A DNA stretch of 64,000 nt from Octopus vulgaris. Lineage: Eukaryota. Both the position numbers and the translations under genes were made by a program. The stretch is from positions 89,962,001-90,026,000 of the forward strand of contig OX597823.1 in the NCBI GenBank assembly GCA_951406725.2. The letters run 5' to 3'. Below the pieces are notes generated by a model, which saw only the letters and a program-made list of their open reading frames with translations, was not told where the DNA came from and ran no database searches. Positions 35,801 to 38,800 of the stretch are shown one piece after another (the stretch's first letter is position 1; every line of letters starts with the position of its first letter).

Positions 35801-38800
35801 CCCCTTGTGGGTAGTAAAGAAATAGATACTATAGTAATCGGGGATGAAACTAATTTAAGGGTAATGGTGGAGGGTGAAAGCCCAGGTCCTATAAGTGTGG
35901 CTAAAAGGGCCACATAAGATCTGAATACCCTCCACCATCGGTGCCTACACCGACCACCAAACCAACAGCATCGTAAAAAACACTGAAAATACTGGAAAAC
36001 CAGATGAAAAAGCACCTGAAACCCAGCCACCAGCCCCAAAGGTTCCAACGAAACCAATTACAAGAACGGCAACAGAGAATGAAATACAATAACTACCCAA
36101 AGAAGACAATAAATGGTCTACTGTCACCAAAAAAAAAAAAGGCAGAAAAAGGTAAGACAACTTTATGCTCTTGTTCAACGTAGGTTGCATAAATGTACGC
36201 AGGCTGGGAACGAATGGAAAGCAAAACTTCCTCCTTGATGACCTCAGGTTGCTTAGATTATATTTAGTAGTTACTACTGAAATCAGACTGAGCGAACTGC
36301 AGGCTTTTTCACCACCACTCCCCTAAATGGCCACGAGGAGTTTATTTCTCCAAGACAACCTGGAGTGGGAGGAGGAGCTGCAGTTCTGCTCAGGAAAAAT
36401 CTGGAATTAGCCGTAAGAACTGTCCTTGTAGACCCAGAGGGCAGGTTGGTGGTCTTTCACGTGAAGCACAGCAGCGGTAAGTCCTTCAGATTGGCAGCTG
36501 TCTATGCTCCTTGCGGAGCAGGGCACTCTGATTATTTCAGAAGCCTAGAGAACTTTCTGTGTTGTATCAGGAAAATGTAAATTTGGTGCAGTGACAACGT
36601 CTTGAGATCTTCTCAGTATGCTTGCTTACCACGTTTTCGTTACTTAACAGAATGTACAAGGCTCCCTCAAAGCACAAGTCACATATGCTGGCTAACATAT
36701 TATTAGGGTGTGCATCTTTTATTATTGACCATTCTGTATCATATTTTATTTTTCCTTCTTTTAATTTCCATATTATGTCTGCTAGTGATGTTGCGTGTTT
36801 CTGGCTTACGTTTTGGAAAGAGGAGACATGGTGGCGATAACGGACCTTGAATTAGTTTTCGGAGACAATATTTACATATCGCCTGAGGAAACACAACTAG
36901 ATCACATGATGATGGAAACCGTTGCACAATTAAGTACCTGTACGCCTGGACAATTACGTTGCGTAGAAACAAATGTAGTGATTGAAAATATACATCCAAC
37001 CGTACTCTTTCTTGTTGACCCCAAATTATTTCAATTATATATATACACACACACATACACACACATGCACACATAAATGATATATATATATATATATATA
37101 TATATATATATATATATATGCACACAGATGCACACATATATATATATATATATATATATATATATATATATATATATAATTAAAATCTTAGGGTAGCAAG
37201 AATATTTATCGAAAAAATTCTTAGTTACCAGTGGTCTAGAGAGAAGGAAAAAATTTGTCAATAGACTACATATTATTCAGAGAAAATTACAGTGTACATT
37301 CAAACACAAAAGAGATACCAAAAGAATAGGATATTTGACTCACTAGAAAGAGCAGTTAAACTCCAAGCCACTAATTGTTGTAATTCCGAAAGTGATTGAA
37401 AAATAAAAACTTTTACCTTATTATCCTAGACCCTGCAAGGTTTCTGCAGACTTAAATACAGACTGAAATAAAATAACCTCAGCCTATATCCGGCGCTGCT
37501 TCTTCAGTAGGTTGCCAGCACTGAACACATAGACACGGAGCGATAAATAACCCGCCACGTGTCTATAGGTTCTAATTTTTCGAATCCATCGCGCAGATGC
37601 GGAACTCAACCGGCACTAAAGAGATAAATTGCCGATTTTCTTCCAGAATTAGCCCAAAAACATATATATATATATATATATATATATATATATATATATA
37701 TATATATTATATATATATATATTATATTATATATATATATATATATATATATATTTTTATTATTATATATATATATATATATATATATATACATACATAC
37801 AGATATACACACATGCATACACATACGTATATACACATATATATGATAGGCTTCTTTCAGTTTCCATCTACCAAATCCACTCACGAAGCTTTGGTCAGCC
37901 ATGTGGCCCTAGTAGAAAGCACTTACCCAAGGTGCTGCCAATTGGGACTGAACTTAAGACGAAATTGTTGAGAAGCAAGCTTCTTATACAGATAACCAAA
38001 CTTGTATCTAAATTATAACATTTAAATACAAAGAAACAGAAAAAGAAAAAGAAAGTAAAAACTGGGGGTGGGTGTAACGCTGCAGAAGATGTAATTTTAA
38101 TTTAAATGAAAAATCAAAGAAACCTATTTTGTATATTTTCCTAGGTGTGCTGTTCCTGGTTACGACAACGACACGTATAAAATCCAAAGTGAAATCCATG
38201 AAGAACTGATCAACGAATATATTCCAAAGAGTGAGGATGAAGGGGAGGTGGTTTATGATAAATGTTTGATATATTCCAATGCCACAGAAAATGGAAATGG
38301 AACTACGCAGAAGTGCAGCTCTTGGGTGTATGATAAAACCAACACGCACACCTCAATCACCACTCAGGTAAGGTTCTTTTGAAAGTCACACGCCACATGT
38401 AAGCTAATCTATCTATCCTTCTATCTGCCCAGCAAACTGTCTTGCTCTCCACCTATCAATCCCTCTACCTATCTATCTATCTATCTATCTATCTATCTAT
38501 CTATCTATCTATCTATCTATCTATCTATCTATCTATCTATCTATCTATCTATCTATCCATACACGCACAGATGTATCTATTATATATATATATGTATGTA
38601 TGTGTGTGTGTGTAAATATATATGTATATATATATACACATATACACATATATATACATAGATATATATATACATACATACACACACAAGCACATACACA
38701 CATACACACGCATATATGTATATATTTATTTATTTATTTATTTATTTATAATAGGAGAAGAGATACAATATACAGGCAGATACCGAATTTCTATATTTAA

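Follow-up and report, generated by a model that had tools for sequence, protein, structure and literature searches.

A Penelope-type hammerhead motif in a dispersed non-coding repeat family of Octopus vulgaris, with copy 5' ends clustered at the predicted cleavage site

The hammerhead motif in an SLC22-like intron

The stretch of Octopus vulgaris DNA analyzed in this work (the window, 64,000 nucleotides) carries on its plus strand an SLC22-like gene whose later exons match MFS_1/Sugar_tr, with a later exon matching OCT1/SLC22A1 chains (E 5e-6). A hammerhead motif is located in antisense orientation in the first coding intron of this gene, between the two exons listed below, as the original prediction had stated, and the host pre-mRNA bears only its non-catalytic complement. 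The presence of the hammerhead in this SLC22 intron is incidental and has no tie to SLC22 function. The carrier of the motif had been described as a non-coding stretch of about 480 bp lying between (TA)n tracts, and it corresponds indeed to a copy of an ORF-less 495-bp unit, named here family A, with one such tract at each end. The features of the locus are the following (window positions):

26729-26871, plus strand: first coding exon of the SLC22-like host gene
38145-38367, plus strand: second coding exon of the SLC22-like host gene, ending the 11.3-kb intron
37662-37807, no strand: (TA)n tract bordering the copy on its 5' side, putative target
37178-37661, minus strand: family A copy close to unit length (L001 segment, 487 nt)
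37425-37511, minus strand: type I hammerhead motif of the PLE kind
37511-37508, minus strand: 5' strand of helix I, 4 bp with 37428-37425
37507-37501, minus strand: core C3-A9, N7 being A here
37500, minus strand: extra nucleotide following A9, an unpaired A in the window copy
37499-37446, minus strand: helix II overall, with a 4-bp base, an internal loop and a 15-bp A+U-rich extension
37499-37496 (GCAG) and 37449-37446 (CUGC), minus strand: helix II base
37490-37455, minus strand: 15-bp extension of helix II
37445, minus strand: extra A, unpaired, between helix II and G12
37444-37442, minus strand: G12-A14
37441-37430, minus strand: helix III, with A15.1-U16.1, two C-G pairs, one U.G pair and loop UGCA
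37429, minus strand: C17 of the GUC triplet, with the predicted cut between 37429 and 37428
37266-37331, minus strand: upstream zone of favored 3' insertion ends in other copies (unit 330-395), putative internal RT starts
37080-37178, no strand: (TA)n tract bordering the copy on its 3' side, putative target

Other repeats are present in the window. Four PLE remnants were found at 10217-12415 (minus), 30385-32388 (minus), 36567-37030 (minus) and 63430-63903 (plus), the last of the four in the window having its own hammerhead just past the window end (L091). The remnant at 36567-37030 is set apart from the unit by a microsatellite and was taken as a separate insertion. An almost complete LINE, which we take to be of the RTE type, is located at 54534-57894 (plus), with endonuclease and RT frames interrupted by frameshifts, and a tandem repeat with a 42-bp period (4.7 copies, 94% matches) extends from 59044 to 59240.

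Direct reading of the minus strand at 37425-37511 has confirmed the core nucleotides, the GUC site and the three helices that had been predicted, the complete core set being C3 U4 G5 A6 N7 G8 A9, G12 A13 A14, A15.1-U16.1 and H17. Helix I is the open end, as in the type I topology, and the three helices are supported by covariation. All the traits of PLE-type hammerheads are found: short helix I, long helix II, an extra base after A9 with a G-C pair next to it, and a palindromic helix III that closes four pairs as a monomer, in agreement with the 4-bp helix III and UGCA loop described before, and forms a self-complementary duplex of 12 bp as a dimer. The description of the motif as fully formed holds for the core, the helices and the GUC site, but was overstated, since the unpaired A's at 37500 and 37445 had been skipped. 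These two residues form an A.A juxtaposition on the core at the site of the canonical 10.1-11.1 pair, and helix II does not stack directly on G12 through that pair, an extra A coming before G12. Among family A copies N7 may be A, G, U or C, and the extra base after A9 is A, C or U, this base being missing from some sister-family copies. The hairpin of the 15-bp extension has a computed energy of -16.8 kcal/mol (on copy L002), and a loop at the canonical loop 1-loop 2 distance is not apparent in helix II.

A type I descriptor allowing both extra A's found one match in the 64-kb window and none in 60 Markov-1 resamplings, and the whole-motif pattern matched 177 times in the genome, with no matches for the reversed control, so that the motif is not a product of chance. 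Of the searches with hammerhead models that had been suggested with the original prediction, the one against Rfam matched no hammerhead family to the motif at either the gathering or the E<=10 thresholds. The extra A next to G12 would account for the failure of Rfam and of strict descriptors to find motifs of this kind.

The folding analysis was carried out with a nearest-neighbor model of secondary structure, free of tertiary terms, in which the three helices were enforced and the core was kept unpaired. The hammerhead fold lies above the free ensemble by 4.0, 8.5 and 9.7 kcal/mol for RNAs of 106, 181 and 481 nt, respectively, and the median penalty is 8.5 kcal/mol in the 75 of 101 copies that fit the pattern. 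It is uphill because a rival hairpin, formed by the 3' strand of helix II with helix III, wins over it. Helix III contributes -1.7 kcal/mol alone versus -18.9 kcal/mol as a palindromic intermolecular duplex. The earlier suggestion that the motif may cleave as a monomer is therefore not supported by the model, in which the palindromic helix III favors a dimer. PLE hammerheads assayed earlier have been described as showing weak cleavage, cleaving as dimers or needing the PLE protein (PMC4209133, PMC11167929), and among nine Xenopus dimers one was reported to cleave and eight were not (bioRxiv 10.64898/2026.07.22.740005).

Assembled contigs from five runs guessed to be RNA (RNA-like contigs) cover family A, and they show neither RNA ends nor strand. 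One of them, of 192 nt and with strand unknown, is identical to the window copy and crosses the cut site; it may be intron RNA or DNA. This contig, together with the ability of helix III to close four pairs, speaks for a ribozyme active as a monomer at the window locus, possibly acting on the SLC22 transcript. We consider such an activity highly improbable, since the motif is antisense to the gene, the active fold is disfavored by 4-10 kcal/mol, the matching contig runs uncut through the cleavage site and the window copy is an average member of the family, 5% diverged. A drop in contig depth over the ribozyme was discarded as evidence of cleavage because it is also present in three large DNA-like runs. 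In several RNA-like runs the deepest family contig derives from a copy of family A that bears a short inverted arm (L384:1500-1890; G000:C9, about 88.185 Mb). The contigs of this copy in X1, X2 and X17 lack 65 nt, in which the cut site and the ribozyme's 3' half are located, plus another 2 nt, whereas both stretches are present in the genome copy and in run X11. The skipped stretch has no splice signals and, being accompanied by a second small deletion, is probably an allele.

The 495-bp repeat family and its relatives

The family A unit consists of 481 bp plus a 14-nt linker seen in tandem copies, with a G+C content of 36% and without any frame of 80 codons. The BLASTN search that had been proposed was performed with 37180-37660 and yielded 84 matches from 40 scored of 1773 candidates, the long ones being 87-96% alike. 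Dispersed copies were thus found as anticipated, but tandem arrays are rare and a linked RT was absent from the 245 family loci considered. Exact patterns (20-25-mers) occurred 70 times in the genome for the 3' core, 97 times for the 5' core with two free positions, 170 times for the sequence just downstream of the cut and 195 times for the 3' end, always with zero occurrences of the reversed control. Family A has at least 170-195 copies and comprises at least a few hundred pieces. A set of 296 segments from 180 loci, a search-drawn sample and not a census, with BLAST-defined ends, has been mapped on the unit. Median segment length is 204 nt, and the median divergence from the family majority is 5.2% (189 segments longer than 150 nt). 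The window copy, with 25 differences from that majority in 474 positions, is a single unit with one ribozyme between the two (TA)n tracts; its ends merge into (TA)n, being blurred by 2-3 nt, and a target duplication is not readable.

The 3' ends of the copies are clustered at unit positions 395 (40 ends), 484 (23), 494 (22), 490 (20) and 381 (14), that is, in the zones 330-400 and 478-498, and 209 of the 281 ends at position 320 or beyond adjoin a microsatellite. An inverted arm is present at the 5' end in 209 of the 296 segments, and the head-to-tail junction 495|1 is crossed by at least 19 nt in 49. Partial tandems, inverted 5' arms, microsatellite targets and variable tails are all features of the anatomy of PLE insertions.

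These data bear on whether the element is a classical non-LTR retrozyme, whose hammerhead would cut tandems to monomers so that circles template rolling reverse transcription. The unit is circularly permuted among copies, lacks an ORF and has 36% G+C; three ribozymes in tandem occur at one locus (L010), and family B, described below, has one tandem pair 471 bp apart. Retrozyme units have been described as 150-450 bp long, with G+C below 50% and without ORF (PMC7229834), and the units of family A (495 bp) and family B (471 bp) exceed this length. Tandem units with a hammerhead each, expected for non-LTR retrozymes, are infrequent in the sample: 175 segments span no cut site, 117 span one, three span two and one spans three, so only 4 of 296 span two or more. 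The geometry of the motif is PLE-type rather than canonical, two kinds kept apart in PMC7229834, and 5' ends at the cut would not be expected from a circle. We regard the classical retrozyme as an improbable explanation. The original alternative of a retrozyme or a solo PLE repeat was right in kind, as the family is dispersed, non-coding and PLE-type, although not as a classical retrozyme, a class to which the element is not assigned because tandem ribozymes are rare. It works like a non-autonomous PLE.

Autonomous PLEs are present in the same genome, where 6136 candidates were obtained by a GIY-YIG family search and 20017 by a PLE protein search, with intact frames of 781 and 984 codons. The 781-codon frame contains RT and GIY-YIG according to Pfam, and the 984-codon frame (L306) has no Pfam match. 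The 984-codon family and its relatives carry hammerheads in both repeats, with a helix II insert of 57-59 nt and a palindromic helix III and without the extra A. Three of these loci (L306, L307 and L309; G000:C19, C15 and C1) represent a young autonomous family whose frames are intact, at about 950-980 codons; it has an Asn-rich insert, a 3' region of 1.5 kb and, in both repeats, a hammerhead. A PLE family with many intact 781-codon RT and GIY-YIG frames is represented by L308 and L310, and L308 has a different hammerhead with a 4-bp helix III, on the opposite strand and downstream.

A partner sharing sequence with the unit was not found in these searches, and trans-mobilization is inferred from the insertion anatomy. 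In BLAST comparisons family A shared no sequence with 65 PLE loci of two clades. With tblastn, proteins of two PLE families matched 4 of 245 family loci, none of the matches being joined to the unit, and no partner in 41 further loci. A 68-nt match in L115, considered as a partner link, proved to be a piece of family B. The copies could also be mere truncated 3' tails of an unsampled autonomous PLE, which is a frequent outcome for such motifs (PMC4209133), and the analysis took in two PLE protein families and a portion of family A. This origin is very unlikely, given that 49 segments pass from position 1 of the unit to its own 3' end through the same junction, that the few loci with a PLE protein match have it apart from the unit, and that the one apparently linked PLE, in L345, lies beyond a (TA)n tract and was inserted separately.

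Conservation of the motif has been analyzed in 53 family A copies picked by patterns outside the core and therefore unbiased. The core is intact in 47 of them, and non-majority letters amount to 11/583 in the core versus 295/4346 in the surroundings, so the core is preferentially conserved among these copies; the shared variants fall at N7 and at the additional base that follows A9. In a larger set of 101 copies, partly selected on the core, the helix III pair 15.4-16.4 is U.G in 87, A-U in 6 and U-A in 5, and one pair of the helix II extension is C-G in 41, C.A in 34 and U-A in 17. Sister family B, reached through a diverged neighbor in L019 and with 2508 candidates, has a 471-bp unit about 72% alike to family A downstream. 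It shares helix I with family A, its helix II is different yet remains paired, and its helix III has a 6-nt palindrome. A third sister type (L367) has the same helix I, the extra A before G12 and its own helix II, also still pairing. Sister-family loci are L313-L342 and L367, family B having thousands of BLAST candidates. Judged from these comparisons, the hammerhead appears to be under selection, with a conserved core and a helix II that covaries across sister families.

The extra A before G12 was kept in 53/53 unbiased copies, and an A precedes GAAA in 100/100 distinct motifs from three related families, part of whose loci had been chosen for having this A. The inserted base beside G12 is thus a conserved trait. 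An extra base is found on both sides of helix II in 89 of the 100 motifs, only the 3' A in 8, and bases able to pair in 3. The variants listed in PMC3088659 include bases inserted behind A6 and behind A13, as well as a U.U mismatch at the helix II base. According to the same source, mismatches at the helix II base lower hammerhead activity, and the extra A may lower or abolish it. No title on a variant with an extra base before G12 was found in the literature search, a weak negative because figures may hold examples.

In the long hairpin (unit 171-199, window 37490-37463) the shared variants of the sense strand are nearly all A/G, with 142/1161 A>G versus 7/1283 T>C, and rare variants (13 versus 7) are not clearly lopsided. 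This excess could come either from template editing of the A-to-I type or from selection that keeps the bases paired. Selection for pairing predicts the same lopsided variants as editing, and a homoplasy test did not separate the A/G sites from a T/C site in a loop.

Copy 5' ends and the predicted cleavage site

In unit coordinates the 3' cleavage product begins at position 234, and the predicted cut coincides with a pile-up of copy 5' ends. The best 6-nt window of the whole unit is 233-238, with 21 ends versus 2 in 227-232 among the 296 segments, or 19 versus 2 when counted by locus (p about 2e-4). Two differently anchored sets of ends, with some loci in common, were compared. Among ends anchored just downstream of the cut, 37 of 109 lie in 234-262 (1.29 per 100 nt at risk versus 0.46), and among those anchored at the far 3' end the figure is 19 of 107 (2.09 versus 0.52 elsewhere), the break rate in this interval being 2.8 and 4 times that of the rest, respectively. 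At least 121 segments run through the cut site, which makes uncut RNA a regular template. Another zone rich in 5' ends (1.84 per 100 nt), without ribozyme, is located at 401-455 of the upstream unit. It occurs in copies longer than one unit and may mark the transcript start of source loci.

The same ends could have arisen in the same element with no cut in vivo, if the RT stalls at helix I or at the dimeric helix III, or if cDNAs anneal through palindromes. The 12-bp duplex of helix III (-18.9 kcal/mol) ends one base from the cut; seven family A loci end within the helix, just upstream of the cut (221-226), and in family B, a biased sample, none of 29 arms starts at the cut and several stop inside helix III, 4-8 nt upstream. 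Junctions can be attracted by the 4-nt palindrome and the T/A runs that sit on the cut; among the 13 loci with ends at 233-236, only about 5 are exact and lack microhomology, as judged by eye. The end counts are highest at the palindromes of 233 and 239, and the active fold is predicted to be rare. Against stalling, the 15-bp hairpin, which is equally stable, has no pile-up at its foot (two loci only), the other CTAG, at 315, shows 3.1 ends per 100 versus 11.5, and the catalytic core is conserved above its surroundings while N7 is free. Taken as a whole, an element without in vivo cleavage is considered rather unlikely, and the specific proposal that the ribozyme cleaves part of the templates, with the stall at the folded ribozyme as its rival, stands at a little better than even. 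The pile-up is a possible genomic footprint of in vivo cleavage. Neither the pile-up nor the segment pattern favors a rolling circle.

The explanation that we consider probable is that the window contains a family A copy with a Penelope-type hammerhead, likely copied into (TA)n by the RT and endonuclease of an autonomous PLE acting in trans. The partial-tandem loci would produce an RNA of more than one unit; the PLE protein would nick (TA)n and prime at internal sites, located about 100-160 or 245-260 nt downstream of the cut. Priming would often start on both strands of the target, with head-to-head joining of the two cDNAs. Some of the templates would be cleaved by the ribozyme, which would probably act as a dimer by way of the palindromic helix III or with the help of the protein, so that reverse transcription would run off at the cut and leave short copies, uncut templates giving rise to long ones. 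The window copy would then be inert, with one unit only and in antisense orientation relative to the host intron. A further proposal, which we put forward tentatively and somewhat below an even chance, is that these families constitute a non-coding clade of PLE parasites with an active hammerhead variant (extra A before G12), whose 5' ends record template cleavage in the germline. If so, they would be sequence-only evidence of in vivo cutting by a PLE-type hammerhead, readable in any genome with enough copies, and cleavage would limit rather than drive copying.

Comparison with known PLEs and retrozymes

Metazoan PLE hammerheads have been described by Cervera and de la Pena in 2014 (PMC4209133), including min-HHR variants and others with a small palindromic helix III, and their traits are an extra base after A9, a short helix I, a long helix II and a palindromic helix III. 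The family A motif resembles them in being type I, with a 4-bp helix I, a long helix II, the extra base after A9 and the G-C pair next to it, a palindromic helix III and copies that are mostly single or inverted. It differs from them in the conserved A before G12, a feature unmentioned in the text of PMC4209133 (the figures may differ), in the 10-nt palindrome of helix III, compared with 2-6 nt, and in the 57-nt helix II insert.

Animal non-LTR retrozymes are regarded as PLE derivatives that lack autonomy (PMC7229834; Li, Clavereau and Pollet 2026, bioRxiv 10.64898/2026.07.22.740005). Family A is similar to them in the absence of ORF, the low G+C, the single type I hammerhead per unit, the head-to-tail junction and the coexistence with autonomous PLEs in the genome. 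Unlike them, it forms mostly partial tandems and inverted pairs and not arrays, its hammerhead is PLE-type and not canonical, its unit has 495 bp and no sequence link to a PLE repeat was found among the 65 PLE loci compared.

The (TA)n microsatellite bias, 5' truncation, inverted 5' arm and partial tandem are shared with insertions of EN-bearing PLEs such as Neptune, Poseidon and Naiad (PMC8557442), which, unlike family A, have an RT-EN frame. Several internal 3' ends downstream of the ribozyme are also known in PAc (PMC11167929) and fit internal priming. In the account given in PMC11167929, ribozyme cleavage is dispensable for PAc and no RNA reads ended at the cut, unlike the 5' ends of family A, which pile up there, and the function of PLE hammerheads is called unclear in PMC8557442. 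A literature search, which covered sources other than subscription journals and Repbase, found no paper on such a cephalopod family or on 5' ends at the cut.

Since hammerheads are a familiar feature of PLEs and of the non-coding elements derived from them, the motif by itself is ordinary. The element belongs to an ordinary class and has two unusual features, the extra A by G12 and the step of 5' ends at the cut. The conserved extra base beside G12, which persists as helix II varies, would extend the known tolerance of the core, and the sharp step of 5' ends at the predicted cut constitutes a genomic test of in vivo cutting that is repeatable on other families.
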